A stretch of DNA of 27,766 bases from Nitrospirota bacterium (GTDB taxonomy: Bacteria; Nitrospirota; Thermodesulfovibrionia; Thermodesulfovibrionales; SM23-35), in NCBI GenBank assembly GCA_014859105.1, contig JACUUX010000038.1, forward strand, positions 1 through 27,766. The letters are read 5' to 3'. A program made the position numbers and the translations under genes. Positions 184 to 27,766 of this stretch are shown here, one piece after another. Below the pieces are notes generated by a model. The model was not told where the DNA came from and searched no databases. It saw nothing but the letters and a program-made list of their open reading frames with translations. The stretch's first letter is position 1; each line of letters starts with the position of its first letter.

Positions 184-960
184 ATGCCATATATACCACC
201 ATCTTTCATGGGTTTTCTCTTATTAATCTTTCTTATAGTTTATTTCCTTTCAAGTGCGATAAAAATCTTAAAAGAATATGAGCGTGGGGTTGTATTCAGG
301 CTTGGGAGGATTATTCCTGTTAAGGGCCCGGGTCTGGTCATAATCTGGCCGATAATCGATAAACTTGTCAGGGTAAGCCTCCGTATCGTTACTATGGATG
401 TCCCAGCCCAGGATATTATTACCAAGGACAATATTACAGTAAAAGTAAACGCTGTAATTTATTTCAGGGTAATGGGTCCGATTAAGGCCATAACAGAGGT
501 AGAGGATTTTTACTTTGCGACCTCTCAGATTGCACAGACAACCTTAAGGAGTATTCTTGGCCAGAGTCAGCTCGATGACCTGCTTGCAAAGAGGGAAGAG
601 GTAAACGCTGAACTTCAGAAGGTTATAGATTTTCAGACAGAACCATGGGGGATAAAGGTTACTGCAGTTGAGGTTAAGAATGTTGATCTGCCTGAAGAGA
701 TGCAGAGAGCGATAGCAAAACAGGCAGAAGCAGAACGTGAGAGAAGGGCAAAAGTCATCCATGCAGAAGGAGAATTTCAGGCTGCCCAGAGACTTACTGA
801 TGCCGCAACTATTATCGCAACCTCACCATCCGCACTTCAGCTCAGGTTCCTGCAGACATTAACTGAGATTGCTACAGAGAAAAATTCGACAATAATATTT
901 CCTGTACCGATTGACCTTGTAAAGCCGTTCATGGAGAAATTTGGTAAAGAAGTGAAATAA
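184..960 (+). CDS. SPFH/band-7 (stomatin/prohibitin-like) membrane protein
   Basis: 258 aa ORF with a strong SD (aaaggaggtaatt-ATG). N-terminal TM helix, then a typical SPFH core ([34 protein letters not shown] coiled-coil, C-terminal QLRFLQTL). Confidence 0.9.
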
Positions 961-1092: not shown

Positions 1093-2364
1093 ATGCAAAA
1101 TATGAATAAAGATTCAAGAAAATATGAAAGAAGGCCTTTTTCTCAGATTATCAATTATTCCATCAGTACACTCGATTCCAAAGAACGAAAGTTGCTGAAT
1201 TTAAAGGGAAATACCTTTGACATCAGTGAAACTGGAGTAGGTATCTATACAGACTATCCTCTGGAACCCGGCCATTTGCTCTGGTTCAATGAAGTGATAG
1301 CAGATAAAGCTGGTTTTGTAAAATGGTGTGCAAAGCTTGACGATGGTTATAGAGTTGGAGTTGAGTTAGAAGTAACACAAGTCAAACGCCTTAATGAAGC
1401 AACGGAAATATTCAATCAGAGACTTGAAGAAATAGAAAAAAGATGTCTCGATCCTGAGGAAAATCCGGAAGAACTTTTACAGGCAACAATTAAAGCTATC
1501 GATGAAGTATTGATTTACTGTAAAGAATTCGAGATGGCAGTGAAAGACAAAGAAATAATTCGTGACGCTCGTACACGCTTCAGAGAAAAAACCAACCCAA
1601 TTTTGTCTAAAAGTTATTGTATAAACCGTGCGCGAACATGGCCTCAGGGATACCAGGGGGATTATAAAACACTGGAAACTGGCTATAAGAATAGCCCTCT
1701 ATCTGAAGGCATAGGATATTATCTTGATTTGTATTTACTGAATGCAGATCTTGCTCATGCTGTAAGAAACAGGATAAAAAAGCTCGAAAACATACTAAAA
1801 GATGAACTACAAAAGAGACAACAACCTTCTGTCTTGAATATTGCATGCGGTTCGTGCCGTGAGGTTTCTACATTAGCGCATGATATTGAAAAATCAGGTG
1901 CTAAATTCACATGTATAGATTTGGACAATGATGCCCTTGCTTTTGCTGCAAGCCGTTTATCGTATACTAATATTTCACCTCTTACATCAAATCAGATTGT
2001 ACTTCGTAAGTACAATGCACTCAGGATGTTCGACGATGAGTTAAATATGAATGAATTCGGAAATCAGGACATCATTTATAGTGTCGGGTTTTTTGACTAT
2101 CTGCAATCTGATTTCCTTGCTAATCTTTTAAAGGCCCTTTACAGACTGCTTAAACCCGGAGGGGTATTAATAACTTCCTTTAAGGATGCAGAAAAATACA
2201 GGTATCATGACTACCATTGGATTGTTGACTGGGACGGGTTTTTGCAGCGTACCGAGGCAGATTTCTGGAGAATATTTGAAGATGCTAAAATTCCAATTTA
2301 TTCAATAACCGAGACACGTGAAGATTCAGGGATAATTGTTTTCTACATAATATCTAAACAGTAG
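1093..2364 (+). CDS. PilZ-domain / class I SAM-dependent methyltransferase fusion protein
   Basis: 423 aa ORF with SD (gaggagtaagtt-ATG). The N-terminus carries the two PilZ c-di-GMP-binding motifs (RKYERRPF as RxxxR; DISETGVGI as D/NxSxGG). The C-terminal half has Rossmann MTase motifs (LNIACGSCRE motif I, CIDLD acidic post-I, LKPGGVLITSF motif II/III). Confidence 0.8.
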   Translation: MQNMNKDSRKYERRPFSQIINYSISTLDSKERKLLNLKGNTFDISETGVGIYTDYPLEPGHLLWFNEVIADKAGFVKWCAKLDDGYRVGVELEVTQVKRLNEATEIFNQRLEEIEKRCLDPEENPEELLQATIKAIDEVLIYCKEFEMAVKDKEIIRDARTRFREKTNPILSKSYCINRARTWPQGYQGDYKTLETGYKNSPLSEGIGYYLDLYLLNADLAHAVRNRIKKLENILKDELQKRQQPSVLNIACGSCREVSTLAHDIEKSGAKFTCIDLDNDALAFAASRLSYTNISPLTSNQIVLRKYNALRMFDDELNMNEFGNQDIIYSVGFFDYLQSDFLANLLKALYRLLKPGGVLITSFKDAEKYRYHDYHWIVDWDGFLQRTEADFWRIFEDAKIPIYSITETREDSGIIVFYIISKQ

Positions 2365-2381
2365 TAAGCTTCTGCTCAAGA

Positions 2382-2439
2382 GGCATCTTGCCGGGTCGAT
2401 TTTAAACAGGTCAGGCAAGATGCCTGTCCTGTTTTTGTC
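2382..2439 (+). terminator. Putative rho-independent terminator downstream of PilZ-MTase gene
   Basis: Inverted repeat ggcatcttgcc (2382-2392) and ggcaagatgcc (2414-2424), followed by the T-rich run tgtcctgtttttgtc. The loop is long (about 21 nt), so the hairpin is atypical. Confidence 0.4.
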
Positions 2440-2494
2440 AGGGTTGCGTCATGCTTCCGTGAAACCGCTCAATAACAAAAATGTTTTTTCGAGG

Positions 2495-2862
2495 AATCGG
2501 TTTTCTCAGTCATTCCGGCTTGTCTGGAATCTTTCTTAGAGACAACCCCCTTTTATCCCCTTTAATAAGGGGGAATCAGAAGGATTCCCGACGCACTTCG
2601 CTTGCGGGAATGACGGGTTAACGTATCAACCATTGGAACGGAGTTCGCTATGAATGCCGGACCAGCAATTCTCGATAAAAAAACTGTAAGATTCTTCAGT
2701 CGCTTCGCTCTTTCAGAATGACATTACGAAACCCCTTGTTGTCATTCTGACTCCCTCTCTCTATCATTCCGAACAAAGTGAGGAATCTTTCCTTTCCGTT
2801 CGGGATAAACTCCGCGAGGAATCTCAATGCCTCGCAAACTCACCGGGAATTGCTGATGCCAG
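2495..2862. repeat. Family-A mosaic MITE-like repeat element, copy 1
   Basis: Module order is M1 (gtcattccggcttgtctggaatc hairpin), M2 (ccccttttatcccctttaataagggggaatcagaaggattcccgacgcacttcgcttgcgggaatgacgg), M3 (atcaaccattggaacggagttcgctatgaat), then M4. M4 is bounded by cagcaattc ... gaattgctg inverted ends and contains gtcattc/gaatgac hairpins. The same modules recur at 21536-21818 (reverse), 25285-25686, 23795-23885, 13853-13915 and 27716-27766. Confidence 0.8.
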
Positions 2863-2953
2863 ACAGTAATTGTTGATTTAAAAATAGTTTTCTTATATTA
2901 TTTAATAAATTAGAGTATTCTTTTAAAGTTTTTTATAAGGTTTGTAAATATAA

Positions 2954-4228
2954 ATGAATAGAAATGTTGTAATTACAGGTATTGGGATTCTCTCTTCCAT
3001 AGGAATCGGGAAAGAAAATTTCTGGGATGTACTATTCAAGGGTAAAACAGGTTTTAAAGAAATAACTCTGTTTGATACCTCTGCTTTGAATGTCCATATA
3101 GCAGGAGAAATTAGTGATTTTGACCCCGTTGCCTTTCTGGGCAAAAAAGGACTCCGTACACTTGACAGGAGCACAAGACTTATAAATTCTGCTGCTAAGC
3201 TTGCCATAGAAGATGCAAATCTGCAAATTACAGAAGAGAATGCTCATCTTACGGGTGTCTCTATCGGAACAACCTTTGGAAGTCTCCATAGTATCTCACA
3301 GTTCGACCGTGAAGGGCTCATCGAAGGCCCTAAATATGTAAACCCATCACATTTTCCGAATACAGTTATAAACTCTCCTGCAAGTCAGGTCTCAATACGT
3401 TTTACGATAAAGGGGTTCAATACGACTATATCTACAGGCTTCTGTGCAAGCCTTGATGCCGTTTCATATGCTGCTGATTTTATAAAATTAAACAGGGCGG
3501 ATGTTGTTCTTGCAGGCGGTGTTGAAGAATTATGCGAAGAGACTTTCCTCGGATTTCACAACCTCGGATGTTTATCGGGATTTGATGGTTCAGAACCTCT
3601 TTGCTGTCCATTTGATGCAAGAAGGAACGGTGTAATCCTTTCTGAAGGAGCGGCTGTCCTAATTCTTGAAGATGAAGAACATGCATTAAGAAGAGGTGCA
3701 AGTATTATGGCAAAGATATCAGGTTATGGTAATTCTTTTGATCCATCACCCCCCTTTAATTCCCCCCTTGGTAAGGGGGGATACAGAGGGGTTGAGGAAT
3801 TCATAGTTGATGGAAAAGGATTAAGAAATGCCATTACCCTCGCCTTACAGGATGCATCTCTCCATCCTGAAAATATAGATTATATTTCTGCATCTGCGAA
3901 CTCAACAAAAGTACTTGACAGAATGGAAACAAATGTTATCAAAGAGGTTTTCGGAAATCATGCTTATAATATTCCGGTGAGTTCGATTAAATCGATGGTT
4001 GGTGAGTCTTTTTCTGCTTCAGGAGCATTGGCAATTGTGGCTGCAATAGGTGCGATGCAAAGAGGAATAGTTTTACCTACAGTTAATTACACTGAAAAAG
4101 ACCCTGAATGCGACCTTGATTATGTTCCAAACACAGCAAGACAGAAACATATAAACAATGTGCTTATAATATCATCTGATCCATATGGCAATAATGCAGC
4201 TATAATATTAGGAAAGCACGATGCATGA
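2954..4228 (+). CDS. Beta-ketoacyl-ACP synthase-like protein lacking both catalytic histidines (CLF/KS-beta-like partner), with in-frame GC-rich element insertion
   Basis: 424 aa with a thiolase-fold KAS N-terminus (MNRNVVITGIGILSSIGIG) and KAS C-terminal signature (PTVNYTEKDPECDLDYVPN). The candidate nucleophile Cys is retained (TGFCAS). The HGTGT His position reads SASANST and the GHxxGAAG His position reads GESFSASG. The stop overlaps the start of the downstream fabZ-like gene (ATGCATGA). Confidence 0.8.
   Translation: MNRNVVITGIGILSSIGIGKENFWDVLFKGKTGFKEITLFDTSALNVHIAGEISDFDPVAFLGKKGLRTLDRSTRLINSAAKLAIEDANLQITEENAHLTGVSIGTTFGSLHSISQFDREGLIEGPKYVNPSHFPNTVINSPASQVSIRFTIKGFNTTISTGFCASLDAVSYAADFIKLNRADVVLAGGVEELCEETFLGFHNLGCLSGFDGSEPLCCPFDARRNGVILSEGAAVLILEDEEHALRRGASIMAKISGYGNSFDPSPPFNSPLGKGGYRGVEEFIVDGKGLRNAITLALQDASLHPENIDYISASANSTKVLDRMETNVIKEVFGNHAYNIPVSSIKSMVGESFSASGALAIVAAIGAMQRGIVLPTVNYTEKDPECDLDYVPNTARQKHINNVLIISSDPYGNNAAIILGKHDA
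3745..3798. repeat. Family-B GC-rich palindromic element inserted in-frame in KS-like gene
   Basis: cacccccctttaattccccccttggtaaggggggatacagaggggttgagg is a poly-C/poly-G hairpin (cccccctt-ggtaa-gggggga) embedded in otherwise AT-rich coding sequence. It encodes PSPPFNSPLGKGGYRGVEE, an insertion relative to the KAS fold. Confidence 0.7.
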
Positions 4229-4712
4229 TCCAGGATGCAAGCAACTTGATTTTGAACAAATAAAAAAACTCATCCCTCAACGTTTTCCCTTCATCATGAT
4301 TGATAAGGTTCTTGAAGTTGAACCGGGTAAACATGCAGTCTCAGTTAAAAATGTTTCAGGTAATGACATATTCTTTCTCGGTCATTTCCCTGATATCGCA
4401 ATCATGCCCGGGGTTGCAATTATAGAAGCCATGGCACAGACTGCAATAATTATGTTTGCTGTCGGGCAAAAAGAAAATAATCCTTCCTCACCCCCCTTTA
4501 GCAAACCAATCTATTTTCTCGGATCAGTTAAAGCAAGGTTCTACCATCCGGTAGTCCCTGGAGACCAGTTAAAAATAAACGCGGTGAACGTAAAATCACT
4601 GCCAACCGGTGCTTATGTATCAGCAGAAGCATTTGTTAATGATAAAAAAGTTTCAGAAGCAGAACTTGTTTTTAGTGTCAAGGAGAAAGGTCAATTATTC
4701 CCTCCCCCTTGA
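4221..4712 (+). CDS. fabZ: 3-hydroxyacyl-ACP dehydratase, FabZ-like hotdog-fold protein
   Basis: 163 aa with canonical FabZ motifs (IPQRFPFIMIDKV; LGHFPDIAIMPGVAIIEAMAQ with catalytic His and Glu). It is translationally coupled to the upstream KS-like gene. It contains an extra SSPPFSKP segment encoded by tcaccccccttt (4488-4499). Its last codons (FPPP-stop) lie inside a GC-rich repeat. Confidence 0.85.
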   Translation: MHDPGCKQLDFEQIKKLIPQRFPFIMIDKVLEVEPGKHAVSVKNVSGNDIFFLGHFPDIAIMPGVAIIEAMAQTAIIMFAVGQKENNPSSPPFSKPIYFLGSVKARFYHPVVPGDQLKINAVNVKSLPTGAYVSAEAFVNDKKVSEAELVFSVKEKGQLFPPP

Positions 4713-4768
4713 CGGAGAAGTACATATTAATCCCCTCCCCATTGACGGGGGAGGGTAAGGGTGGGGGT
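4700..4768. repeat. Family-B GC-rich palindromic element at fabZ-like 3' end and intergenic region
   Basis: ccctccccc ttgacgg ... cccctcccc-attgac-gggggagggtaagggtgggggtg. The hairpin cccctcccc/gggggaggg shares the gagggtaagggtg core with the 7096-7156 element. It overlaps the fabZ-like stop codon at 4710-4712. Confidence 0.7.
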
Positions 4769-4818
4769 GACTAATAATTGAACAGGCTGCAAAATATAGC
4801 TAAAAATCTAATGAAGTT

Positions 4819-4847
4819 TTGACAAATAGTGAGGGGGGTAAGATAAA
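4819..4847 (+). promoter_or_regulatory. Candidate sigma70-like promoter for fabF-like gene
   Basis: TTGACA at 4819-4824 and GATAAA at 4842-4847 with 17 nt spacing. An SD (ggag) lies before the ATG at 4881. Weak -10. Confidence 0.25.
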
Positions 4848-4880
4848 TTTCTTTATTAATAATAAGAGTAATGGAGTAAT

Positions 4881-6128
4881 ATGCTCAACAATCATCGTGT
4901 AGTTATAACCGGTCTCGGTGTTATCTCTTCCATCGGTATAGGCTGGGAGGAATTCTGGGACAATCTTCTCAAAGGGAAATCAGGAATAAGTCCTGTGACA
5001 TCTTTTGATACCACTAATCACATTACTCACAACGGCGGCGAAGTTAAAAACTTTAAGCCTGAAGAATTCATTCCAGAAGAAAAAATTAAATTACTTAACA
5101 GATCATCACAACTCGCCTTTGCAGCAGCAAAGCTTGCAATTGAGGATGCTTATTTGTCCCAAGAAAATTACCCCTCCCCCCTCCCCCTCCCTCAAGGGGA
5201 GGGGGCGAGGGGGAGGGTTGGCATCTGTATAGGAACAACTACAGGGTCGATACAGGCTATTGAGCATATTAATGATAGAATAATCAGTAATAAAGAAATA
5301 GGCAAAGAATTAATAAGTCAACTGCCACCTCATACTACTCCTTCAACGATAGCAAGAGAATTTGATTTAAATGGTCCTAATTTTATGTTTTCCACTGCCT
5401 GTGCAGCAGGCAATTATGCTATAGGTTATGGCTTTGATCTTATACGTTCTAAAAGGGCTGACGTTATTATTGCCGGAGGTTCAGACCCTTTCTCACGGAT
5501 ATCTTTCACAGGGTTCAATCAATTTTCTGTATCTGCTCCTGAAAAGTGTCAGCCTTTTGATAAAAACAGAAAAGGTATGATGGTAGCTGAAGGTGCTGGG
5601 ATTCTTGTTCTTGAATTACTGGAAATTGCTATAAGAAGAAATGCACCTATATATGCTGAGATATCAGGTTATGGTCTAAGCTGTGATGCAGAGCATATGA
5701 CGCAACCTTCTGTCGACGGTATTTCGGAATGTATGATAAAAGCAATGCGTGAAGCTAAAATCGAAACAGAAGATGTAGATTATATATGTGCGCATGGAAC
5801 TGGAACAACTTCTAATGATAAAACGGAATGTGCTGCAATTAAAGAGGTCTTTGGACCACTATATAAAAAAATGCCTGTAAGCTCTATAAAATCAATGCTC
5901 GGACATCCAATGGGTGCTGCATCAGCACTTGAGGCAATTGCATGTGCACTTGCAGTAAAAAATGACATTATTCCTCCAACTATAAATTATGAGACACCCG
6001 ACCCCGAATGTGATATAGATTGCGTTCCAAATAAATCAAGGCAACATCCTGTAAATATAGCTTTGAATAATTCTTATGCTTTTGGTGGGAATAATGCTTG
6101 TTTAGTGGTTAAAAAATTTATAGAATAA
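4881..6128 (+). CDS. Beta-ketoacyl-ACP synthase II-like (FabF-type) condensing enzyme with complete Cys-His-His triad, carrying in-frame GC-rich insertion
   Basis: 415 aa. Active-site Cys in FSTACAAGNYAIG, first His in ICAHGTGTTSNDKTE, Lys and second His in IKSMLGHPMGAASALE, and C-terminal NSYAFGGNNACLVV. Confidence 0.85.
   Translation: MLNNHRVVITGLGVISSIGIGWEEFWDNLLKGKSGISPVTSFDTTNHITHNGGEVKNFKPEEFIPEEKIKLLNRSSQLAFAAAKLAIEDAYLSQENYPSPLPLPQGEGARGRVGICIGTTTGSIQAIEHINDRIISNKEIGKELISQLPPHTTPSTIAREFDLNGPNFMFSTACAAGNYAIGYGFDLIRSKRADVIIAGGSDPFSRISFTGFNQFSVSAPEKCQPFDKNRKGMMVAEGAGILVLELLEIAIRRNAPIYAEISGYGLSCDAEHMTQPSVDGISECMIKAMREAKIETEDVDYICAHGTGTTSNDKTECAAIKEVFGPLYKKMPVSSIKSMLGHPMGAASALEAIACALAVKNDIIPPTINYETPDPECDIDCVPNKSRQHPVNIALNNSYAFGGNNACLVVKKFIE
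5170..5217. repeat. Family-B GC-rich palindromic element inserted in-frame in fabF-like gene
   Basis: cccctcccccctccccctccctcaaggggagggggcgagggggaggg is a near-perfect poly-C/poly-G palindrome. It encodes PSPLPLPQGEGARGRVG, which is not part of the conserved KAS fold. Confidence 0.7.
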
Positions 6129-6152
6129 ATTAACAAGGAGAATAACCTTGGA

Positions 6153-6632
6153 ATGGCTGGAAATATTGAAAAAGAAGCATGTAAGAATATAATTATGAAC
6201 AGCTTTAAGACATATAGCCTTACAACTGATGAAAAACAGGAAATAAAACATCTTATAAAGGCGGAATTAGAAAAACATAATGAAATTGCCTTTGCCTATA
6301 TTTATGGTTCATTTATTGAACCCGAGATGCCTTTTTTCAGAGATATAGATATAGGTATTTACCTCATAGATTATAAAGACGCCGATTGTTTGAAATATGA
6401 AATTGAGTTATCCATTGAATTGGAAAAATGTCTCCAGTACAAATATCCAGTTGATTTAAGAGTTATAAATAAATCAGATATTTTATTTGTGCATAATGTT
6501 ATTCAGGGTGAATTGCTTTTTATAAGAGATGAAGATTTATGGACTGATTTCGTAGTATATGTTTCTTTAAAATACAATGATATAGCCTCTGTATTTAATC
6601 ACTACTTCAAGGAGGCTTATATAGAAAGATGA
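6153..6632 (+). CDS. mntA: Nucleotidyltransferase-domain antitoxin (MntA/MNT family)
   Basis: 159 aa with the minimal nucleotidyltransferase motif (YIYGSF ... RDIDIGIY, i.e. GSx(n)DxD). Its stop overlaps the start of the downstream HEPN gene by 4 bp. Confidence 0.75.
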   Translation: MAGNIEKEACKNIIMNSFKTYSLTTDEKQEIKHLIKAELEKHNEIAFAYIYGSFIEPEMPFFRDIDIGIYLIDYKDADCLKYEIELSIELEKCLQYKYPVDLRVINKSDILFVHNVIQGELLFIRDEDLWTDFVVYVSLKYNDIASVFNHYFKEAYIER

Positions 6633-7048
6633 GTTTGGATAAGGTTAAGATAAAAGCAAGATTTGAGGATATACAAAAGGCTATTGATAGACTTTCTGAG
6701 TTTACAAAGATTGACAAAAATTCATTTCTTTCGAATGAGGATTTTATCCATATAGCCCGTTCCCATCTTCTTATTGCTTCGGAAGCATCTATTAACATCT
6801 GCTACCATATTGCAGCAAAAAGGCTAAAAAGGGCACCAGCCGAATACAGTTCGTGTTTTGAATTATTGCAAAGGCATAAGCTTATATCAGAGGAGTTAGC
6901 ACTCCATCTTATCAAACTAATCGGGCTCAGAAACAGAATGGTCCATCGCTATGAAGAGATAGACTACGGTTTCATATATGACAATTTTAAAGAGATTATA
7001 GAAAACTTTAGAAAACTTATTAATGAAGTCTCAAGTTTGATAATTTGA
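6629..7048 (+). CDS. hepT: HepT-like HEPN-domain toxin (DUF86)
   Basis: 139 aa with the Rx4-6HxY HEPN motif (RNRMVHRY) near the C-terminus. Paired with the upstream MNT-type gene. Confidence 0.75.
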   Translation: MSLDKVKIKARFEDIQKAIDRLSEFTKIDKNSFLSNEDFIHIARSHLLIASEASINICYHIAAKRLKRAPAEYSSCFELLQRHKLISEELALHLIKLIGLRNRMVHRYEEIDYGFIYDNFKEIIENFRKLINEVSSLII

Positions 7049-7095
7049 ATTTGAATATTTTGAACTTGTCCAAAAATGTCATTGACCCGAAAATA

Positions 7096-7205
7096 CCCCT
7101 CACCCTCACCCTTACCCTCTCCCACAAGGGGAGAGGGTAAGGGTGAGGGTGAGGGGTGCAGGGGTGTGTACCCATCCCTTGATGGGAGGGGATAAAGGGG
7201 AGGGT
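7096..7205. repeat. Family-B GC-rich palindromic elements (two hairpins), intergenic
   Basis: 7096-7123 (cccctcaccctcacccttaccctctccc) pairs perfectly with 7129-7156 (gggagagggtaagggtgagggtgagggg), giving a roughly 28 bp stem with a 5 nt loop. A second hairpin, cccatccc-ttgat-gggagggg, lies at 7171-7190. Confidence 0.85.
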
Positions 7206-7289
7206 GTTATATTTTCATGTTTCCTTGTGCCACTTGTGGCATGAGGGTTTGTTTAGGATTTAGATATTAGAATTCGGGATTTAAAAGAT

Positions 7290-7392
7290 ATGTATGATGC
7301 TGTAATCATAGGTACGGACATAAGCGGCCTTGTTTGTAGATGTTATCTGGCAAAGGCAGGAAAAATGGGACGTCATGAGCATTTAATACTTG
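7290..7392 (+). pseudogene. Degenerate duplicate of the 5' end of the downstream CrtI-like oxidoreductase gene (gene remnant)
   Basis: atgtatgatgctgtaatcataggtacggacataagcggccttgtttgtagatgttatctggcaaaggcagg is about 80% identical to 8076-8150 (atgtatgacgccataatcataggtgctggcataggaggccttgtatgcggatgttatctcgcaaaggctgg). The translation MYDAVIIGTDISGLVCRCYLAKAG has a ruined GxGxxG and terminates after 34 codons. Confidence 0.7.
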
Positions 7393-7452
7393 TTAATTAA
7401 CATCCAAAATGCTAAGTTATTTTTGAGGAAATCAAGAAGAAGGAGAAGAAAA

Positions 7453-7698
7453 ATGGTCAGCAAAAAAACCTATAAAGAGCGGATAGTAATTGATCCTGAA
7501 ATTCACTTTGGAAAGCCTTGTGTGGCTGGCACACGAATTCCAGTAGAAAATGTGCTTGAATTAGTTCAGGAAAACATTCCTTTTAGCGAAATTGTGGAAA
7601 AATATTATCCCGACCTTGAGATTGAAGATGTTAAAGCTTGTGTTAGATATGCAACAGATTTGGTTTGTTCGGAAGAAATTCATGTTGGAAAAACTTAA
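7453..7698 (+). CDS. DUF433-family small protein (putative antitoxin)
   Basis: Core HFGKPCVAGTRIPVENVLE is typical of DUF433. Likely start is MVSKKTYKE at 7453 after the purine-rich SD gaagaaggagaagaaaa. The six-frame ORF extends upstream to 7390 via TTG. Confidence 0.7.
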   Translation: MVSKKTYKERIVIDPEIHFGKPCVAGTRIPVENVLELVQENIPFSEIVEKYYPDLEIEDVKACVRYATDLVCSEEIHVGKT

Positions 7699-8054
7699 TG
7701 CGTCTACTTACAGATCAGGACGTGTATAAAATAACAGTAGAACAGCTTAAAAAATGGGGCCATGATGCAATAACCGCTAAAGAGCTTGGTATGCAACAAG
7801 CAGCAGATAGAGATTTACTAAAGAAAACTATTGAAACAAATCGGTTGCTTATTACAAGGGATAAGGATTTTGGGGCACTTGTTTTCTTAGAAGAATCATT
7901 AAATACTGGAGTCATTCTTCTAAGAGTTACTCCAATAACTGTTGAAGATGTACATCGGGAACTTTATCGTCTCTTTCAGGAACATACCGAAGAGGAATTA
8001 AAACATTTATTCTGTGTTGTTGAGCCTCATCGGCATCGAATTCGCCGTTTATAG
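7698..8054 (+). CDS. DUF5615-family PIN-like protein (putative toxin partner of DUF433)
   Basis: ATG at 7698 overlaps the upstream stop (TAATG). MRLLTDQDV ... ITRDKDFG matches the N-terminus and acidic core of DUF5615/Mut7-C-like PIN proteins that pair with DUF433. The six-frame ORF starts earlier at 7665. Confidence 0.65.
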   Translation: MRLLTDQDVYKITVEQLKKWGHDAITAKELGMQQAADRDLLKKTIETNRLLITRDKDFGALVFLEESLNTGVILLRVTPITVEDVHRELYRLFQEHTEEELKHLFCVVEPHRHRIRRL

Positions 8055-8075
8055 TATGGTAAAGCGTAATAAAAT

Positions 8076-9497
8076 ATGTATGACGCCATAATCATAGGTG
8101 CTGGCATAGGAGGCCTTGTATGCGGATGTTATCTCGCAAAGGCTGGCATGAAGGTGCTTATCTGCGAGCAGCATTATAAACCGGGAGGTTATTGCACATC
8201 CTTTACAAGACAGGGTTTTACTTTTGATGCTGCTCCTCACTGTTTTGGATCTTACAGAAAAGATGGAATGATGAGAAAAATCCTTCAAGACTTAGAAGTA
8301 GATAAAAAATTAAATATAATAAGACCCGACCCTTCAGATATTATAATGACACCTGATTATGAAGTCATCTTCTGGAATGATTTCGAAAGGACCACAGAGG
8401 GATTTCAAAGAATGTTTCCTGAAGATCGCACTAATATCAGGAATTTCTTCACCCTGTTAATGGATACCGATCCTAACTCCTTCTCTAGAATGAAGAACCG
8501 TACCTTCAAAGAATTATTAGATCAATATTTAACTAATGTAAAGTTGAAGTCGATCCTATCCTTTCCATTTCTGGGAATCGGAGGTTTGCCTTCGTCCATG
8601 ATATCTGCCTTCATAGGAGCAAAACTCTTCTCCGAATTTTTATTTGACGGTGGGTATTATCCCGAAGGTGGCATGCAGGCGCTGCCTGATGCTTTAGCAG
8701 AGAGATTAAAAGAGTTCGGCGGTGAGTTGAGACTCTCCTGTCCTATCAAAAAAATACGAGTAAGAGAGAATAGAGTTACGGGCGTAATCTCAGAAAAAGA
8801 CGGCTTCATGCCTTCAAGATATGTGATTTCGAACTGTGATGCCAGACAGACTTTTTTCAAACTCATAGGCGGGAGAAAGGTTGAGAGAGAGTTCTCTCAG
8901 AGATTAAAGAAGATGGTGCCCTCTATATCGAATTTCATTGTCTATATGGGCATAGACGGTCATTTTGAAACCCTGCCGAGACCAGGAACCACCCTTTCCT
9001 TTTTTAGATACTATGACATAGAGAAGGCATACCGGTCAGTACTAAAAGGCGACTTCGAAGGCTACGGCGGATATATGCTGCGAGCCTCCCGGGATACCCC
9101 GGTTATCATAGCAATCATTCCTGTACCATTTAAAAACAAAACCTATTGGAAGGATCACAAGCAAAGATTATCGGAATATCTAATAGAGAGAATAGAGAGA
9201 GATTTGATTCCGAATCTCACAGCCCATATCGTATATAAAGACGCATCCACTCCATCTACCTTAAACAGATATACTTTAAACTATAAAGGTGCCTCCTTTG
9301 GCTGGGCTGGTATACCTTCGCAATTAGCAGTCCCGGGCCTGAGAAAGTGCTCGTATACAGAGGGGCTCTATTTGACAGGACATTGGACTACACTTGGAGT
9401 AGGAATCTCTGGAGTGGCGTATGTTGGGTATGACACCGCGAAGATTCTTATAAGGAGAGAGGTAAATAGGCAAAACATCTCATTTTTGATAAAATAA
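8076..9497 (+). CDS. NAD(P)/FAD-dependent oxidoreductase, phytoene desaturase (CrtI)/amine-oxidase family
   Basis: 473 aa. N-terminal dinucleotide-binding motif YDAIIIGAGIGGLVCGCYLAKAGMKVLICEQ ... PGG, and a C-terminal FGWAG ... LYLTGHWT motif characteristic of the CrtI-like family. Confidence 0.75.
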   Translation: MYDAIIIGAGIGGLVCGCYLAKAGMKVLICEQHYKPGGYCTSFTRQGFTFDAAPHCFGSYRKDGMMRKILQDLEVDKKLNIIRPDPSDIIMTPDYEVIFWNDFERTTEGFQRMFPEDRTNIRNFFTLLMDTDPNSFSRMKNRTFKELLDQYLTNVKLKSILSFPFLGIGGLPSSMISAFIGAKLFSEFLFDGGYYPEGGMQALPDALAERLKEFGGELRLSCPIKKIRVRENRVTGVISEKDGFMPSRYVISNCDARQTFFKLIGGRKVEREFSQRLKKMVPSISNFIVYMGIDGHFETLPRPGTTLSFFRYYDIEKAYRSVLKGDFEGYGGYMLRASRDTPVIIAIIPVPFKNKTYWKDHKQRLSEYLIERIERDLIPNLTAHIVYKDASTPSTLNRYTLNYKGASFGWAGIPSQLAVPGLRKCSYTEGLYLTGHWTTLGVGISGVAYVGYDTAKILIRREVNRQNISFLIK

Positions 9498-9503
9498 AAA
9501 CTA

Positions 9504-11645
9504 GTGGACAAAGATAAATATATACAGCAGGAGCTATTGGAAACAATCCGGTCGTTCACCGGTTTACTCTTTCTCATCGGTGCCCCAGCAATATTGTTGT
9601 TGAGTCTGCTCGATTATTTTGTGACACCCGAGAATTTTAGAACCTTCCTTGTTTATCGGTTGGTCGCTACCTTACTCTACGTGACATTATATTTCATATT
9701 CAAAAGAGTAAAAAAATATCCCCTCTTCTTCCTCATAATGGGCACCGTCATAGTTTCGTCTATGGTCGAGTTGATGATACTTTCTTTTGGGGGTCATCAG
9801 TCGACCTATTACGCGGGCATGATCATCGTGTTTATCTTCCTCTTCGGATTGCTCCCCTTCTCTCTCAGAATATCCTTACTTCTCGCTTCAATCATCTATG
9901 CTATTTATCTGATTCCTATCTTAGTCTTGGACCAGATCACGAACATGCGCGTCTTTATGAACAATAACATCTTTCTCTTTGCTACCCTCATGAGTGTACT
10001 TATCTGGAGACATATCAATTACAAGATTCACCTCAAAAAGCTTTCCCTCGAATATGACCTTTCCCAAGAACAGAAACAACTTAAAACTTACTCCACCCAG
10101 CTTGAAGAACTTGTCCAACAAAGAACAAAGGAGCTTGCCATCTCAGAAAAATGGCACAGGTCAATTTTTGACAATGCTACCGAAGGAATTATGGTGCTTG
10201 ATAACAACGGTGCGATTGTTAACGTTAATAAAATGGCATGCGACCTACATGGCTTTACCGGAAATGCTTTAGCAGGTGTAAATATCGGGCTTCTTGAAGT
10301 AAAAGCAGACAAGGAAAAAATTAATGAGAGGTTATCGAGAATTTTAAATGGTGAAACGCTTACTTATGAAACAGAACATTATAGAAAAGACGGTGAGAAG
10401 GTTCTTTTAGAAATCAGCTCAAACCGTATAGATAGCGAAGGCCAGACATATATCCAATGCTTCTGCAGGGATATAACTGAAAAGAAGAAGATTCAGGAGC
10501 AGTTGATACATTCACAGAAAATGGAATCAGTCGGCGCACTCGCCGGAGGCATCGCTCATAACTTCAATAATATTTTGACCACGATTCTCGGATATTCAGA
10601 ATTGTTGATTGAATACAGCAATCTTGATGACTCATCAAAACAGAAGGTAGAAAATATTGAGAGTTCTGCAAGAAAGGCAGGAGTAATGGTCTCGAAACTC
10701 CTGGGTTTTGCAAGGAGAGAAAAACATGAAATCCTTCCTTTAAACCTGCATCATGTAATCAATGATTCAGTTAAACTCTTTGAGGGTGTGCTTGACAAGA
10801 AGATAGGATTGAAGATAAATCTGTGCAGTAATAATCCAATTATCGAAGGAGATCCGAATCAGGTCGAGCAGGTTATTATGAACCTCATAGTTAATGCAAA
10901 GGATGCAATGCCTGACGGAGGCCTTATAACAATAAAAACTGACATAATCGAGATTGGAAAGGATAAAACCGATACGCCGGCTTACATAGAACAAGGAAAA
11001 TATGTCGTATTAACCGTGTCTGACACAGGCTGTGGCATACCTAAAAATATAATCAATAAAGTATTTGATCCTTTCTTCACAACTAAAGAGAAAGGGAAAG
11101 GAACAGGCCTTGGACTTGCTATGGTTTACGGGATTGTCAAAGATCACAGAGGCTATATTTCTGTTCAAAGTGAGATAGACAAGGGCACAATTTTTGACAT
11201 ATACCTCCCTGTTTCAGAAAGAGTTGTTCACAGGGTTACAAAACCACAAATCTTTTCGATAGAAGGACATGAAAATATACTTGTAGTCGATGATGATAAA
11301 GACGTATTAAACTTTATTAAGGATATCCTTGAAACGCATGGATATACTGTTACGTCTGCAAATAACTCCCTGACAGCAATTGACATATTCAGGAATCTTT
11401 CCGGAAAAATTTCGCTTGTAATAACAGACGTACTTATGCCACTGATGGAAGGAGGAGAACTAATAAAACAATTGAAAGAAATAAAACCGGATATCAAGAT
11501 AATCATCATTTCCGGCTACAGCGATGAAAAAATTACAAAAGACATGGTCGATGTGTTTATCAGGAAACCTTTTGAAAGTATTGAACTCCTGTCAGCGGTC
11601 AGACGGCTCCTCGATGCACAGGGCAGGAGATCACCACTTTATTAA
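9504..11645 (+). CDS. Hybrid sensor histidine kinase / response regulator with multi-TM N-terminal sensor and PAS domain
   Basis: 713 aa with a GTG start 7 nt after the oxidoreductase stop. About 6 hydrophobic helices in the first 170 aa, then a coiled-coil and PAS (ATEGIMVLDNNGAIVNVN). HisKA H-box (GGIAHNFNNILTTILGYSELL). HATPase_c (IVNAKDAMPDGG, GTGLGLAMVYGIV). C-terminal receiver (ILVVDDDKD ... ITDVLMP ... IIISGY). Confidence 0.85.
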   Translation: MDKDKYIQQELLETIRSFTGLLFLIGAPAILLLSLLDYFVTPENFRTFLVYRLVATLLYVTLYFIFKRVKKYPLFFLIMGTVIVSSMVELMILSFGGHQSTYYAGMIIVFIFLFGLLPFSLRISLLLASIIYAIYLIPILVLDQITNMRVFMNNNIFLFATLMSVLIWRHINYKIHLKKLSLEYDLSQEQKQLKTYSTQLEELVQQRTKELAISEKWHRSIFDNATEGIMVLDNNGAIVNVNKMACDLHGFTGNALAGVNIGLLEVKADKEKINERLSRILNGETLTYETEHYRKDGEKVLLEISSNRIDSEGQTYIQCFCRDITEKKKIQEQLIHSQKMESVGALAGGIAHNFNNILTTILGYSELLIEYSNLDDSSKQKVENIESSARKAGVMVSKLLGFARREKHEILPLNLHHVINDSVKLFEGVLDKKIGLKINLCSNNPIIEGDPNQVEQVIMNLIVNAKDAMPDGGLITIKTDIIEIGKDKTDTPAYIEQGKYVVLTVSDTGCGIPKNIINKVFDPFFTTKEKGKGTGLGLAMVYGIVKDHRGYISVQSEIDKGTIFDIYLPVSERVVHRVTKPQIFSIEGHENILVVDDDKDVLNFIKDILETHGYTVTSANNSLTAIDIFRNLSGKISLVITDVLMPLMEGGELIKQLKEIKPDIKIIIISGYSDEKITKDMVDVFIRKPFESIELLSAVRRLLDAQGRRSPLY

Positions 11646-12626
11646 TACAGAAGACCATGTAAGACCGCCGCCGAATGCCTCAAAAAGAATATAATCTCCA
11701 TTTTTTATCCTTCCGGATATTAAAGCTTCATCCAGGGCAATAGGAATGGAAGCAGCTGAAGTATTCCCATATTTATATAAGTTTACAATAAATTTTGACA
11801 TGGGCAAACCCAACCTTTCGGCAGTTGCCTGTATTATTCTCAGATTCGCCTGATGCAGAACAAGAAGTGAAAGCTGTGAAGGCTTCAACCCCTGTTCCTC
11901 AAGTGTTCGTAATACAAGGTCTTCCAGTGTTCTTACCGCAACTTTAAAAGTTTCATTGCCTTTCATCTTAATGTAATGAAGTCTTTTTTCGACAGTTTCT
12001 GCGGCAGTGGGATTCCTGGAACCACCTCCCGGAATGTGTAAGAGATCCCACATCCTTCCATCAGAATTTATATGCACTGAGAGAATACCTCTGTCTTCGT
12101 CCGTCGGTTCAAGAATTGCAGCACCGGCCCCGTCACCAAAAAGAACACATGTTGTTCTGTCATGCCAGTCCGTAATCTTTGAAAGCACTTCTGTTCCGAC
12201 AACCAGGATTCTTTTATACATTTCTGATTTAATAAAACTGTCTGCAATGCAGAAGCCGTATAGGAATCCTGAACATGCTGCATTTATATCGAACCCAACA
12301 GCATTTGAAGCGCCCAGTTTAGCCTGAAGAAAACATGCTGTTGAAGGGAAAGGCATGTCGCCGGACACCGTTGCAACAATAATCATGTCTATATCTTCCG
12401 GCCTTAATCCAGCTCTATCAAGAGCTACCTTTGATGCTTCATACGCAAGGTCTGATGCAGCCTGACTCTCATCAGCTATTCTTCTTTCCTTAATTCCCGT
12501 CCTTTCTGTAATCCATTCATCAGAGGTATCAAGCATCTTTTCAAGGTCTCGATTCGTAAGAATCTTATCGGGGAGATATGATCCGGTCGCGATTATTCTA
12601 CTTCTTGGCAACTTTAATCCTTTCAT
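11631..12626 (-). CDS. fabH: 3-oxoacyl-ACP synthase III
   Basis: 331 aa. ATGSYLPDKILTNRDLEKMLDTSDEWITERTGI N-terminus, active-site Cys in NAACSGF, and HQAN / GNTSAAS motifs. Confidence 0.9.
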   Translation of the reverse strand: MKGLKLPRSRIIATGSYLPDKILTNRDLEKMLDTSDEWITERTGIKERRIADESQAASDLAYEASKVALDRAGLRPEDIDMIIVATVSGDMPFPSTACFLQAKLGASNAVGFDINAACSGFLYGFCIADSFIKSEMYKRILVVGTEVLSKITDWHDRTTCVLFGDGAGAAILEPTDEDRGILSVHINSDGRMWDLLHIPGGGSRNPTAAETVEKRLHYIKMKGNETFKVAVRTLEDLVLRTLEEQGLKPSQLSLLVLHQANLRIIQATAERLGLPMSKFIVNLYKYGNTSAASIPIALDEALISGRIKNGDYILFEAFGGGLTWSSVLIKW

Positions 12627-13626
12627 GGTGTGATATGTCCTTTTCTATTGCAGATGAAATAATTTCATAGACCTTTTTCTTCGCAAAATCTGCCGCAACC
12701 CTTATGGCATTCCTGATTGCTTTTGCCGTTGATCGCCCATGACTTATTATACATGTCCCGTTAATCCCGAGAAGCGGTGCCCCTCCATATTCATCATAAT
12801 CTGTTTTCTTTTTGAATTTCTTCAAAGCAGGTTTCATTAAAAGATACCCTATACGTCCTGCCGTTAGATTAGCAACCTCTCTCTTGAGCATTTTAATGAG
12901 AGCGTCAGCAAGCCCCTCGCTTGTCTTCAAAATAATATTACCTGTAAATCCATCACATACAATAACATCTGTATCACCTGTAAATATATCTTTACCATCG
13001 ACGTTACCAATAAAATTTATGTCAGCTTCTTTAAGAAGTTTAAAGGTTTCCTTTGTAAGCTCGTTCCCCTTTGTATCCTCTTCTCCGGTGCTAATTAACG
13101 CAATCCTGGGCTCCGGCCTTCCGAGAATAAGCCTGCAATATGTACTGCCCATTAAAGCAAATTGAAGAAGGTTACGAGGGGTACAGTGAAGATTTGCACC
13201 TGCATCGATCAAAACAAAAGGTGACCTCAAAGTCGGCATTATTGCTGCTATAGCTGGCCTATCAACTAAATCTGCTGTGCCAAGCAGTAATAAAGCTGTA
13301 GCCATTACAACACCGGAGTGACCGGCACTTACAAAAGCATCCGCCTCACCGTTTTTTACAAGCTCCATTCCCCTTCTTATAGATGAATCTTTTTTCTTTC
13401 TTATTGCAAAAGAAGGAGATTCATCCATTCTGACAAACTGTGAGGCATGCTTTATTGATATACTCTTGGGAGGATATCTTTTATTGTCAAGGTCTCTTTT
13501 TAGAGTTTGCTCATCACCAACGAGGATAATCTGAGTATCCTCAAAATTGTTAACGGTTTCAACAGCGCCCTCGATATTAACAGCAGGGGCATAATCGCCT
13601 CCCATCGCATCAAGGGCTATTCTCAT
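12598..13626 (-). CDS. plsX: Phosphate acyltransferase PlsX
   Basis: 342 aa. MRIALDAMGGDYAP N-terminus, HGRS motif and CDGFTGN. Sits between rpmF and fabH as in the canonical operon. Confidence 0.9.
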   Translation of the reverse strand: MRIALDAMGGDYAPAVNIEGAVETVNNFEDTQIILVGDEQTLKRDLDNKRYPPKSISIKHASQFVRMDESPSFAIRKKKDSSIRRGMELVKNGEADAFVSAGHSGVVMATALLLLGTADLVDRPAIAAIMPTLRSPFVLIDAGANLHCTPRNLLQFALMGSTYCRLILGRPEPRIALISTGEEDTKGNELTKETFKLLKEADINFIGNVDGKDIFTGDTDVIVCDGFTGNIILKTSEGLADALIKMLKREVANLTAGRIGYLLMKPALKKFKKKTDYDEYGGAPLLGINGTCIISHGRSTAKAIRNAIRVAADFAKKKVYEIISSAIEKDISHHERIKVAKK

Positions 13627-13811
13627 GCTTCTTTTTCAACTACAGACAGTACCTTACGGCCACGATATGCCCCGCAATTCGGACAGACTTTAAATGATAT
13701 CTTTAATTCGTTACAATCAGGACATAAGCTGAGATTGGGTAGCTGTCCTTTCCAGTTGGCTCTTCTTTTATCTCTCCTTGACCTTGTATGTCTATGGGTT
13801 GGATTAGCCAT
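13623..13811 (-). CDS. rpmF: 50S ribosomal protein L32
   Basis: 62 aa MANPTHRHTRSRRDKRRANW ... CPNCG, the classic L32 sequence with a Zn-ribbon. Confidence 0.9.
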   Translation of the reverse strand: MANPTHRHTRSRRDKRRANWKGQLPNLSLCPDCNELKISFKVCPNCGAYRGRKVLSVVEKEA

Positions 13812-13967: not shown

Positions 13968-14471
13968 TTATGCTTCCTTATCCAGCAATTTCTTCAGAAC
14001 CTCAAGCCTTGGATCTGTATCATCCCTGATGCAATTACAGACGCTTTCGTTAAGATCTTCACCACATTTTACGCATATGCCTTTACACAAATCACTGCAA
14101 AGAGGCTTCATTGGTAAATTAAGTATTATCTGCTCATTTATCAGATTTAATAAATCAAGCTCTACACCCGAATAAAAATCCATATCGAGTTCTTCAAACT
14201 TGATTTCGTGCATCTCTTCGTCTTTGAGTTCTTCAACCGGGTGATATACAACATCAATAGGAATAGACATTATTTTACAGAAATCTTTAAGGCACCTGCT
14301 ACACTGAAGCTTTATTTCGACTTCCAGATCACCCTTTATTATAATCTCAGCCCCTGCTTTTTCAATCTTTAATCGTGCTATTATAGGTGTTACAATGGCA
14401 TCAGATTCGATTGACTCCTGTAATTCTAAGTCTAGCCCTTCTTTTGGTATATCAGGAATTAGTACTTTCAT
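13968..14471 (-). CDS. yceD: YceD/DUF177 family protein (large-subunit rRNA accumulation protein)
   Basis: 167 aa acidic protein with CxxC ... CxxC (CSRCLKDF ... CKGICVKCGEDLN). Located immediately upstream of rpmF-plsX-fabH, the conserved position of yceD. Confidence 0.8.
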   Translation of the reverse strand: MKVLIPDIPKEGLDLELQESIESDAIVTPIIARLKIEKAGAEIIIKGDLEVEIKLQCSRCLKDFCKIMSIPIDVVYHPVEELKDEEMHEIKFEELDMDFYSGVELDLLNLINEQIILNLPMKPLCSDLCKGICVKCGEDLNESVCNCIRDDTDPRLEVLKKLLDKEA

Positions 14472-16946: not shown

Positions 16947-17076
16947 AGATAAGGAAATAAAAAGATATATTTCCGTGATATATATTTATCTCTTCAGGTT
17001 TTTAAGGTACTTAAGTCACATTGACATTACATCACAGCATTCTGTTGTCCTTAACTCAGCCTTATCAATTCTCATT

Positions 17077-21818: not shown

Positions 21819-21864
21819 CTTCCTTTATGTCGTATATTCGGCATGAAGGTTTAGTTTAAATTAG

Positions 21865-27557: not shown

Positions 27558-27715
27558 TGTGTCCTTATATCCTAAAAGCACATCCGTAAGATATCTCTTT
27601 CTTCATAAGTATAGCCAATAATATTCAAAAAAGGCATGAAAAATATAAAATATTTTTAACAATTAAGAAAAAATACCTAACCCGGATTATTCATAAAATT
27701 ATTGGCAAAACTTAT

Positions 27716-27766
27716 GCTATTAATCATCAAAGATCTTAAAAGTTGTTTAAGTTTTTCAATTCTGTC
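27716..27766. repeat. Family-A repeat, copy 5 (truncated by window end)
   Basis: gctattaatcatcaaagatcttaaaagttgtttaagtttttcaattctgtc is module M5 followed by the first bases of M1. It is the reverse complement of 21640-21693. Confidence 0.7.

Follow-up and report, generated by a model that had tools for sequence, protein, structure and literature searches.

A conserved Nitrospirota gene cluster that carries an anammox-type acyl module between PhcB-like and PhcS-like genes

The stretch of DNA analyzed here (hereafter the window) is a 27.8-kb contig from a Nitrospirota bacterium (GenBank assembly GCA_014859105.1, contig JACUUX010000038.1). Positions 1093 to 11645 of the window are one copy of a conserved gene cluster that is common in Nitrospirota. 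In this cluster, a dedicated type II fatty acid synthase (FAS)/polyketide synthase (PKS)-like module lies between the gene for a PhcB-family methyltransferase (MT1) at the head and the gene for a PhcS-like hybrid kinase at the tail. Judged by sequence comparisons, the module is more closely related to the core of Cluster I, a gene cluster of anammox bacteria, than any other known system is. We rate as new the setting of an anammox-type acyl module within a Phc-type synthase-sensor pair, both kinds of system being known separately. Searches of the literature returned no description of this cluster family, nothing that ties the ladderane cluster or PhcB to Nitrospirota, and no cluster of this kind in which genes for a ketosynthase (KS) and a chain-length factor (CLF) are joined by a phytoene-desaturase/CrtI-like gene.

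A first-pass annotation of the same DNA had proposed that its condensing enzymes, dehydratase, methyltransferase, and CrtI-type desaturase form one functional locus that is split by toxin-antitoxin (TA) cassettes and that makes a polyene or an unusual fatty acid. We reproduced its gene order and coordinates by searching a list of open reading frames (ORFs) from the window against Pfam and NCBIfam profiles. That annotation overlooked the KS/CLF-type pair, of the anammox Cluster I kind, among the condensing enzymes. It also missed the PhcB-like nature of the methyltransferase and the PhcS-like kinase, which is the next gene of the same conserved unit.

Two sets of related loci (numbered L001 and so on) were used for comparison. 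The first consists of contigs that encode oxidoreductase homologs 58–72% identical to the CrtI-family flavin adenine dinucleotide (FAD) oxidoreductase of the window. The second consists of 80 metagenome loci that were fetched with the CLF (KS-like) protein alone, a choice of query that makes this set a test of linkage independent of the oxidoreductase. Gene content in the second set was scored by tblastn. About 85 related loci were compared in total, and the denominators given below are the loci testable for each gene.

In L001 to L004 and L168, the gene order is MT1, a short-chain dehydrogenase/reductase (SDR) ketoreductase when present, CLF, dehydratase (DH), KS, acyl carrier protein (ACP), oxidoreductase, and kinase, with the DH gene missing from the otherwise conserved order in L003. 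In relatives that are free of TA genes, the oxidoreductase gene follows the FabF-like KS gene with only an ACP gene of 87–88 codons between them, which is the outcome of the synteny check that the first-pass annotation had proposed.

Within the second set, 43/43 loci have MT1 upstream of the CLF gene (42 scored by script, plus L139 added from the gene-content table) and 25/25 have the kinase gene. The DH and ACP genes are found in 53/54 and 44/48 loci, respectively, and about half of the loci carry the ketoreductase (22/43). The CrtI-like oxidoreductase is present in 24 of 29 loci and absent from the other 5; by eye, nine loci run straight from the ACP gene to the kinase gene. The linkage of the cluster genes is far beyond chance. 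MT1 and the kinase are the invariant first and last genes of the cluster, whereas the CrtI-like flavoenzyme is often present for tailoring but can be dispensed with and is not a constant element of the cluster.

These counts support the earlier proposal of a single locus split by TA cassettes, because the gene order is conserved across the compared loci rather than the genes being unlinked in relatives. The role that had been assigned to the CrtI-type enzyme as a part of the pathway holds insofar as its gene belongs to the cluster, where it is accessory. The proposed product class, a polyene or an unusual fatty acid, remains unproven.

Other tailoring genes also vary among the relatives. A 286-amino-acid methyltransferase (MT2) with a weak match to the cyclopropane-synthase family (25 bits) occurs instead of or besides other tailoring genes in L096, L110, L123, L130, L136, and L138, and no MT2 was found anywhere in the window. 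Directly after the ACP gene, two loci encode a B12-binding radical S-adenosylmethionine (SAM) protein that is 29–31% identical to kuste3608 (L111, positions 4539–5876; L151, positions 5843–7093). Because L151 carries this gene besides the rest, each of the six gene types of anammox Cluster I has a counterpart there.

The closest TA-free relative is L001, which is collinear with the window from the Band7 gene to a glycosyl hydrolase gene far downstream. It differs in carrying a DedA gene that is not in the window, and in having the ACP gene where the window has positions 6139–8088.

Acyl module and associated oxidoreductase

The two condensing enzymes differ at the active site. In alignments, the Cys-His-His catalytic triad is intact in the FabF-like KS, whereas Phe, Asn, and Glu replace these residues in its CLF-like partner. 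Among structures in the PDB, the KS is best matched by 9s5h_B (473 bits, compared to 338 for Iga11 and 306 for BsFabF) and the CLF by 9s5h_C (394 bits, compared to 260 for canonical FabF). In a neighbor-joining (NJ) tree whose reference set was 20 canonical FabFs, window-type KS proteins form a clade with amxFabF2 and window-type CLF proteins form a clade with amxFabFmut, each in 200 of 200 bootstraps. The KS and CLF are 55% and 50% identical to the anammox proteins, respectively, and about 40% identical to canonical FabF.

The DH and ACP point in the same direction. The best PDB matches of the window DH are the amxFabZ structures 8ayd, 7qv0, and 8ayi, and the next is Pseudomonas aeruginosa FabZ (1u1z) with 102 bits. 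Three signature positions have been given for amxFabZ, namely Ile in the tunnel, a non-basic residue at 96, and a hydrophobic residue at 115 (PMC10139942). At each of these, the window DH is of the amx kind: its tunnel residue is Ile instead of the Gly of canonical FabZ, and positions 96 and 115 are Tyr and Leu, respectively (segments AQTAIIM, ARFYHPV, and VKSLPTG). The ACPs of the relatives find their best PDB matches in the amxACPs 7qv0_D, 7auf, and 9s5i_E by a small margin (59 versus 53 bits).

Among the matches listed in a genome scan with the CLF alignment is a Planctomycetes metagenome-assembled genome (L008) with the complete anammox order of ACP, DH, KS, CLF, phytoene-dehydrogenase homolog, and radical SAM genes. 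Identities to its proteins are 42% for ACP, 44% for DH, 54% for KS, 48% for CLF, and 34% for the oxidoreductase. The matches listed in the same scan also include an Omnitrophota locus (L006) with CLF, ketoreductase, and DH genes beside riboflavin genes, which added little.

Published work describes the biochemistry of the anammox homologs. The amxFabF2/amxFabFmut heterodimer decarboxylates malonyl-ACP and prefers C6–C8 substrates (bioRxiv 10.64898/2026.05.19.726425), and amxFabZ prefers chains no longer than C8 and has specificity for its cognate ACP (PMC10139942). Recent structural papers describe Cluster I as present only in ladderane producers, and Rattray et al. (2009) noted looser clusters of FAS, phytoene-dehydrogenase, and SAM genes in some deltaproteobacteria.

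Another explanation is that housekeeping FabF and FabZ genes lie by chance beside an unrelated carotenoid-type desaturase gene. Annotation thresholds do return FabF and FabZ for these proteins (NF005589, 391.9 versus 387 bits; NF000582, 138 versus 113 bits), and plsX, fabH, and rpmF are nearby on the other strand. However, the KS (410.9 bits) and the CLF (356.1 bits) both score below the cutoff of the FabF equivalog TIGR03150 (493.75 bits), the partner ketosynthase is without the catalytic triad, and the KS and CLF clades stand apart from all 20 canonical FabFs in 200 of 200 bootstraps. Likewise, the module has a dedicated ACP, its gene order is kept across about 85 loci, no carotenoid genes are present, and the anammox homolog kuste3607 is without CrtI activity (PMC4790861). 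Housekeeping FAS with chance adjacency is contradicted by both synteny and phylogeny; we consider it highly improbable and reject it.

The oxidoreductase scores below the cutoff of every curated family, including crtI_fam (TIGR02734, 169 versus 238.1 bits), and none of these profiles thus assigns it an established function, in keeping with the first-pass annotation. It is 34% identical to kuste3607, 31% identical to kuste3336 (sequences from the supplement of PMC4790861), and 26% identical to CrtI. Its AlphaFold2 (AF2) model (pLDDT 87) has a CrtI/CrtD-like fold with best fold matches to 4rep and 4dgk, and gives no hint of desaturase versus isomerase versus reductase activity. A carotenoid pathway was also considered and rejected. 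Neither crtB nor crtE was found in the window or in the examined relatives, the crtI_fam score is below the cutoff, and kuste3607 does not complement CrtI (PMC4790861).

Methyltransferase, kinase, and candidate product

MT1 begins with a PilZ-like domain that scores just under the Pfam cutoff (22.0 versus 22.5 bits), has the cyclic di-GMP (c-di-GMP) motifs RKYER and DISETG, and is predicted by AF2 to form a beta-barrel. Many MT1 homologs are named 3-OH-PAME biosynthesis protein by JGI (the PhcB orthology group). A tblastn search of plasmids uncovered a Paraburkholderia graminis operon that encodes a 468-amino-acid methyltransferase, a 445-amino-acid kinase, and two response regulators, and JGI names members of the methyltransferase and kinase protein clusters PhcB and PhcS. 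When the MT1 profile was aligned to this PhcB homolog with hhalign, the match had a probability of 98.2% (E 6.6e-14) over 220 columns, including motifs upstream of the Rossmann core such as the shared P-x-G-Y-x-G-D-Y. As a control, the same profile aligned to the generic MT2 with a probability of 23%. No sequence match to MT1 was found in the PDB, and Foldseek against the PDB returned only generic methyltransferases.

The best plasmid match to MT1 (27% identity over 277 residues) lies in a type I PKS, where it forms the C-terminal domain; this PKS is encoded at positions 694–3831 of L167, an IncFII conjugative plasmid of Enterobacter ludwigii (NZ_CP134637.1) that carries a second KS-domain gene upstream. 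Because of this match, the MT1 family may work with carrier-protein-based assembly lines.

The kinase has a putative membrane sensor domain with 4–5 predicted transmembrane segments. This domain resembles that of the PhcS homolog by BLASTP (25% identity over 202 amino acids, E 1e-10) and by hhalign (97.6%, E 4.4e-12), and both membrane domains have weak MASE8 matches. In Ralstonia, PhcB makes methyl 3-hydroxymyristate or methyl 3-hydroxypalmitate, which is sensed by PhcS, whose gene shares an operon with phcB (PMC11960443). The PhcB-like nature of MT1 and the PhcS-like nature of the kinase thus point to a signaling compound and not to a lipid made in bulk for membranes.

We therefore favor, with moderate confidence, an explanation in which a dedicated short- or medium-chain acyl-ACP module feeds the PhcB-like methyltransferase and the adjacent kinase senses the product, with the chemistry being what we infer from the genes. 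The KS/CLF heterodimer would be primed by decarboxylation of malonyl-ACP, after which it would elongate a chain of short or medium length that is carried by the dedicated ACP. A ketoreductase, either cluster-encoded or housekeeping, and the DH would process this chain, the flavoenzyme could change its saturation or double-bond geometry, and MT2 or the radical SAM enzyme would serve as optional tailoring. MT1 would then turn the acyl product into a methyl ester, and the kinase would detect the diffusible product through its PhcS-like membrane domain. The PilZ domain would put synthesis under c-di-GMP control.

Several observations weigh against this explanation. The similarity to PhcB and PhcS is remote (about 22–27% identity) and was measured against Paraburkholderia homologs annotated by KEGG Orthology (KO), not against the Ralstonia proteins. 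No PhcR/PhcQ-type response regulators lie beside the window kinase, which is followed by fabH and plsX on the opposite strand and has its own receiver (REC) domain; furthermore, its PAS and REC domains are absent from the PhcS homolog. No member of the cluster family has a known product, and neither has anammox Cluster I. The cluster contains no enoyl reductase, thioesterase, or malonyl transferase, and for this reason chain length and saturation cannot be deduced. The oxidoreductase shares its cluster position with kuste3607 but only 34% identity, which makes orthology plausible only. An ACP gene is lacking not only in the window but also in four relatives (L091, L094, L095, and L098). The metagenome loci are partly redundant (near-duplicate contigs from related samples), so the counts given above overstate the number of independent observations, even though the pattern itself is unambiguous. 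Finally, the neighbors of the cluster are membrane-homeostasis genes (Band7/NfeD, and DedA in relatives), which fit a role in membrane lipids equally well.

Such a role is the main rival. Here, membrane lipids would receive an atypical fatty acid, whether unsaturated, polyene, or methyl-branched, from the module and the CrtI-like enzyme, the methyltransferase would modify the chain, and the kinase would be a co-located regulator or a sensor of membrane state instead of the receptor for the product. The conserved upstream neighbors are NfeD, Band7, and DedA-type membrane proteins, the anammox homologs have been assigned to ladderane synthesis in the literature, the CrtI-family enzyme UfaD acts on fatty acyl chains (PMC7380195), and the accessory MT2 has its weak match to the cyclopropane-synthase family. 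Set against these points, MT1 is specifically PhcB-like rather than CMAS-like, the kinase has a PhcS-like sensor domain and is invariably linked, about one locus in six does without the oxidoreductase, and the cluster has no acyltransferase to load the product onto glycerol. On balance, we regard a membrane-lipid pathway as rather unlikely.

A BioC-like logic, in which the methyltransferase methylates malonyl-ACP and the module builds a short dicarboxylate or a cofactor-type precursor (C6–C8), strikes us as improbable. MT1 has a weak BioC match (E 3e-5), and the short-chain preference of the anammox KS/CLF and dehydratase homologs would suit such a product. However, the BioC score of 23.9 bits is far under the cutoff of 185 and MT1 is specifically PhcB-like; no bioH, bioF, bioA, or bioD gene is nearby in the window or in the examined relatives; and the invariant sensor kinase and the PilZ domain would be left unexplained.

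The preferred reading, methyl-ester synthesis coupled to sensing, suggests a concrete class of product that can be tested for, namely methyl esters of short or medium acyl chains. It also raises the possibility that PhcB/PhcS-type signaling, so far discussed for Ralstonia and its relatives, exists in anaerobic Nitrospirota with an acyl-chain factory of its own. A bolder proposal, which we put forward tentatively and hold to be doubtful, is that the anammox Cluster I core, rather than being ladderane-specific, is one member of a broader family of dedicated modules for short acyl chains, with the Nitrospirota version making fatty-acid methyl-ester signals of a new class that are tailored by desaturation, methylation, or radical SAM enzymes. 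If this is true, no more than a short acyl piece would come from the anammox core, and other enzymes, such as those of the radical SAM kind, would carry out the chemistry specific to ladderanes.

Ladderane biosynthesis is a long-standing open problem, and no anammox bacterium is genetically accessible. Close homologs of five of the six Cluster I gene types occur in many non-anammox genomes in a different context, and the cluster family is a comparative means to separate ladderane-specific from generic genes. Because relatives have intact clusters that could be expressed heterologously, experiments on what the Cluster I core does could become feasible outside of anammox bacteria.

Insertions, repeats, and the lost ACP gene

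The features of the window copy and its immediate surroundings are collected in Table 1.

Table 1. Features of the window from the Band7 gene to the sensor kinase gene
Feature	Position	Strand	Basis
Band7 protein, upstream of MT1	184–960		
MT1: PilZ-like N-terminal domain, helical linker, and PhcB-family class I SAM methyltransferase	1093–2364	+	Pfam, AF2, hhalign
Repeat-laden spacer between the MT1 and CLF genes	2365–2953		Repeat search
CLF-like ketosynthase homolog (KS-like; amxFabFmut type)	2954–4228	+	PDB search, NJ tree, alignment
FabZ/FabA-like 3-hydroxyacyl-ACP dehydratase (DH; amxFabZ type)	4221–4712	+	PDB search, signature residues
G/C-rich palindromic repeat between the DH and KS genes	4733–4770		Repeat family D1
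FabF-like active ketosynthase (KS; amxFabF2 type)	4881–6128	+	PDB search, NJ tree, alignment
ACP gene stub (MAGNIEKE...) fused in frame to mntA	6153–6194	+	L096 comparison
MntA-like nucleotidyltransferase antitoxin	6195–6632 (whole ORF 6153–6632)	+	NCBIfam
HepT RNase toxin	6629–7048	+	NCBIfam
Two more G/C-rich palindromic repeat copies	7095–7207		Repeat families D1, I6
Remnant of oxidoreductase 5' end	7285–7360 (ORF 7290–7400)	+	Alignment, repeat search
DUF433	ORF 7390–7698, probable start 7453	+	Pfam, sequence
DUF5615/PIN-like	ORF 7665–8054, probable start 7698	+	Pfam, sequence
CrtI-family FAD oxidoreductase	8076–9497	+	NCBIfam, AF2 fold
Hybrid sensor histidine kinase: membrane domain, PAS, HisKA, HATPase, REC	9504–11645	+	Pfam

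Neither an ACP nor a ketoreductase was detected anywhere in the window. The first-pass annotation had likewise seen no ACP or reductase gene, which is accurate for this DNA; what it could not convey is that the ACP is normally part of the system and was deleted here. The closest relatives are L096 and L086, whose KS-like proteins are 80–81% identical to that of the window. Both have the order KS, ACP, MntA, HepT, and the MntA/HepT insertion is therefore older than the loss of the ACP gene. This shared insertion is 86% identical in nucleotide sequence between the window and L096. The ACP gene of L096 (12871–13132) is replaced in the window by 72 bp (6122–6193). The ORF at 6153 opens with MAGNIEKE, compared to ACP N termini of LNNNIEKE in L096 and MSQNIEKE in L001; a stretch of 15 nucleotides matches the L096 ACP gene without a mismatch at its 5' end, after which the frame runs into the mntA start MNSFKTY. 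The window ACP thus survives only as an 8-codon stub, the remainder having been deleted together with the phosphopantetheine serine.

From the same comparisons, the TA genes are insertions, and they are passengers outside the pathway. HepT exceeds its NCBIfam cutoff (87.7 versus 60 bits) and MntA falls slightly below its own (54.4 versus 60 bits). The pair is of the type VII MntA/HepT kind by domain content, small size, and overlap of the two genes (4 nucleotides), and differs in that the mntA frame has captured the first eight ACP codons. The DUF433 and DUF5615 genes, which overlap at TAATG, are a second inserted TA-like pair, resembling known PIN-like TA pairs in domain content, small size, and overlapping genes. 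PADLOC returned no match for the TA genes.

Between the two pairs lies a 76-bp duplicate of the oxidoreductase 5' end (7285–7360, 82% identical to 8071–8146) with a degenerate FAD motif (GTDISG). L096 has the same remnant after hepT (14002–14068, 83.6% identical), followed by MT2 instead of DUF433/DUF5615, which argues that the remnant marks an old cassette junction. A duplicated oxidoreductase 5' end ahead of a variable cassette suggests exchange of cassettes by recombination at the remnant sequence. Furthermore, the upstream genes are 77–90% identical between L096 and the window and the oxidoreductase only 49%, which points to a recombination breakpoint at the island.

Comparable events are seen in other relatives. 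Additional inserts in the operon include a PhdYeFM/PIN pair between the KS and ACP genes (L168, 14319–14941), a VapBC-like insert between the CLF and DH genes in which a small ORF lies upstream of a PIN toxin gene (L139, 11300–12061), and genes for 23S-rRNA-IVS-family proteins (L113, 11263–11623; L160, 8273–8627), beside the MntA/HepT insert of L096 (13134–13981). In L086, about 250 codons of the active ketosynthase have been lost. It appears that small selfish cassettes have landed in the operon repeatedly, at different intergenic junctions in different relatives.

Small repeats have also entered the window copy. One family consists of G/C-run palindromes (C-run, loop, and G-run) at 3745–3790, 4470–4490, 4733–4770, 5183–5220, and 7095–7207, where one copy has perfect 29-nucleotide arms. 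Both intergenic and in-frame copies exist, and they encode PSP...GEG-like peptides when translated. The CLF, DH, and KS genes each carry an in-frame insert that leaves the frame unbroken and that is not present in alignments of orthologs. In the CLF gene, a window-specific insert of 13 amino acids comes from such a palindrome, and in the active KS gene the repeat at 5183–5220 adds 10 amino acids, PSPLPLPQGEGARG. The DH and KS genes overlap in relatives (L001), whereas a repeat intervenes in the window.

A second, composite family is formed by segments of 28–80 nucleotides with 80–100% identity that occur in both orientations in several intergenic regions, and it may be an element that resembles miniature inverted-repeat transposable elements (MITEs). 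It includes families D2, D4, D5, D8, D9, and I3 in the spacer at 2365–2953, with further copies at 21540–21840, 25380–25690, and 27713–27766. Its occupation of the spacer accounts for the unusual distance between the MT1 and CLF genes; the L001 spacer is about 120 bp, and the expanded stretch does not align with L001.

All cluster ORFs other than the ACP are still open in the window. Without a substitute ACP from elsewhere in the genome, the window module is probably inactive. Given that four relatives are naturally without an ACP gene, such substitution is conceivable and the loss need not mean inactivity. The window copy itself conveys a more ordinary message, that of TA cassettes and small repeats eroding an accessory operon, and the value of the finding lies in the cluster family rather than in this eroded copy.

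Past the kinase, the opposite strand carries fabH, plsX, rpmF, and yceD by Pfam and NCBIfam. The rpmF-plsX-fabH genes (11631–13811, minus strand) end head-to-tail against the sensor kinase gene, an arrangement kept in L001 and L168, and they are not followed by fabD-fabG-acpP-fabF, unlike in many bacteria. A response-regulator receiver domain fused to PilZ is encoded at 26814–27581 (minus strand), which makes it the second c-di-GMP-related protein on the contig. Between lpdA and eno, two ORFs of 184 and 257 amino acids (16392–17748) have a low GC content of 0.33–0.36 and no Pfam or PADLOC match; this segment is probably another small insertion, because the syntenic L001 has only a 278-bp gap there. 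A search of the window with Rfam at gathering thresholds gave no match.

Comparison with known systems

Anammox Cluster I (kuste3603–3608), called the putative ladderane cluster, encodes amxACP, amxFabZ, amxFabF2, amxFabFmut, a phytoene-dehydrogenase homolog, and a B12-radical-SAM protein. The Nitrospirota cluster shares with it an active KS and a triad-less partner encoded side by side, an amx-like FabZ, a CrtI-family flavoenzyme directly downstream, and a dedicated ACP in the relatives, although the ACP is gone from the window copy. Instead of anammox Planctomycetes, it is Nitrospirota and members of a few other phyla that host the cluster. Gene order differs as well, with CLF-DH-KS-ACP-oxidoreductase in the Nitrospirota cluster and ACP-DH-KS-CLF-phytoene dehydrogenase-radical SAM in anammox bacteria, and the Cys position of the CLF is occupied by Phe in the former and by Val or Thr in the latter. 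The window has no B12-radical-SAM gene, and only 2 of the 80 relatives have a distant one. Conversely, the PhcB-like and PhcS-like flanks are absent from the anammox locus examined (L008).

Highly reducing type II PKSs, such as those for ishigamide (Iga10–16) and aryl polyenes (ApeO/ApeC), also have a KS/CLF heterodimer and discrete ketoreductase, DH, and ACP components without an enoyl reductase. However, the KS is closer to the anammox proteins than to Iga11, and the cluster has no starter-unit, aryl, amide-forming, or pigment-type export or attachment genes.

Two other systems pair a methyltransferase with a flavoenzyme. BfaB and BfaA are such a pair for 10-methyl fatty acids. In furan fatty acid synthesis, UfaM and UfaD are a methyltransferase and a CrtI-family enzyme that act on fatty acyl chains (PMC7380195). 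The likeness, judged by description, is that a SAM methyltransferase and a flavoenzyme of the amine-oxidase/CrtI superfamily are encoded together in a lipid context. UfaM and BfaB are members of the cyclopropane-synthase family whose substrates are the acyl chains of phospholipids, whereas MT1 is outside of this family by Pfam. In addition, MT1 and the flavoenzyme are tied to a dedicated ACP-based module in the Nitrospirota cluster, and the flavoenzyme is dispensable.

With the PhcB/PhcS system, the cluster shares a PhcB-family methyltransferase and a kinase gene in the same direction whose product has a homologous multi-pass membrane sensor domain. MT1 differs in carrying a PilZ domain. In Ralstonia, the acyl chain for PhcB presumably comes from general fatty-acid metabolism. 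The Nitrospirota cluster, in contrast to the Ralstonia Phc system, places a dedicated KS/CLF/DH/ACP module and tailoring enzymes between the methyltransferase and kinase genes.

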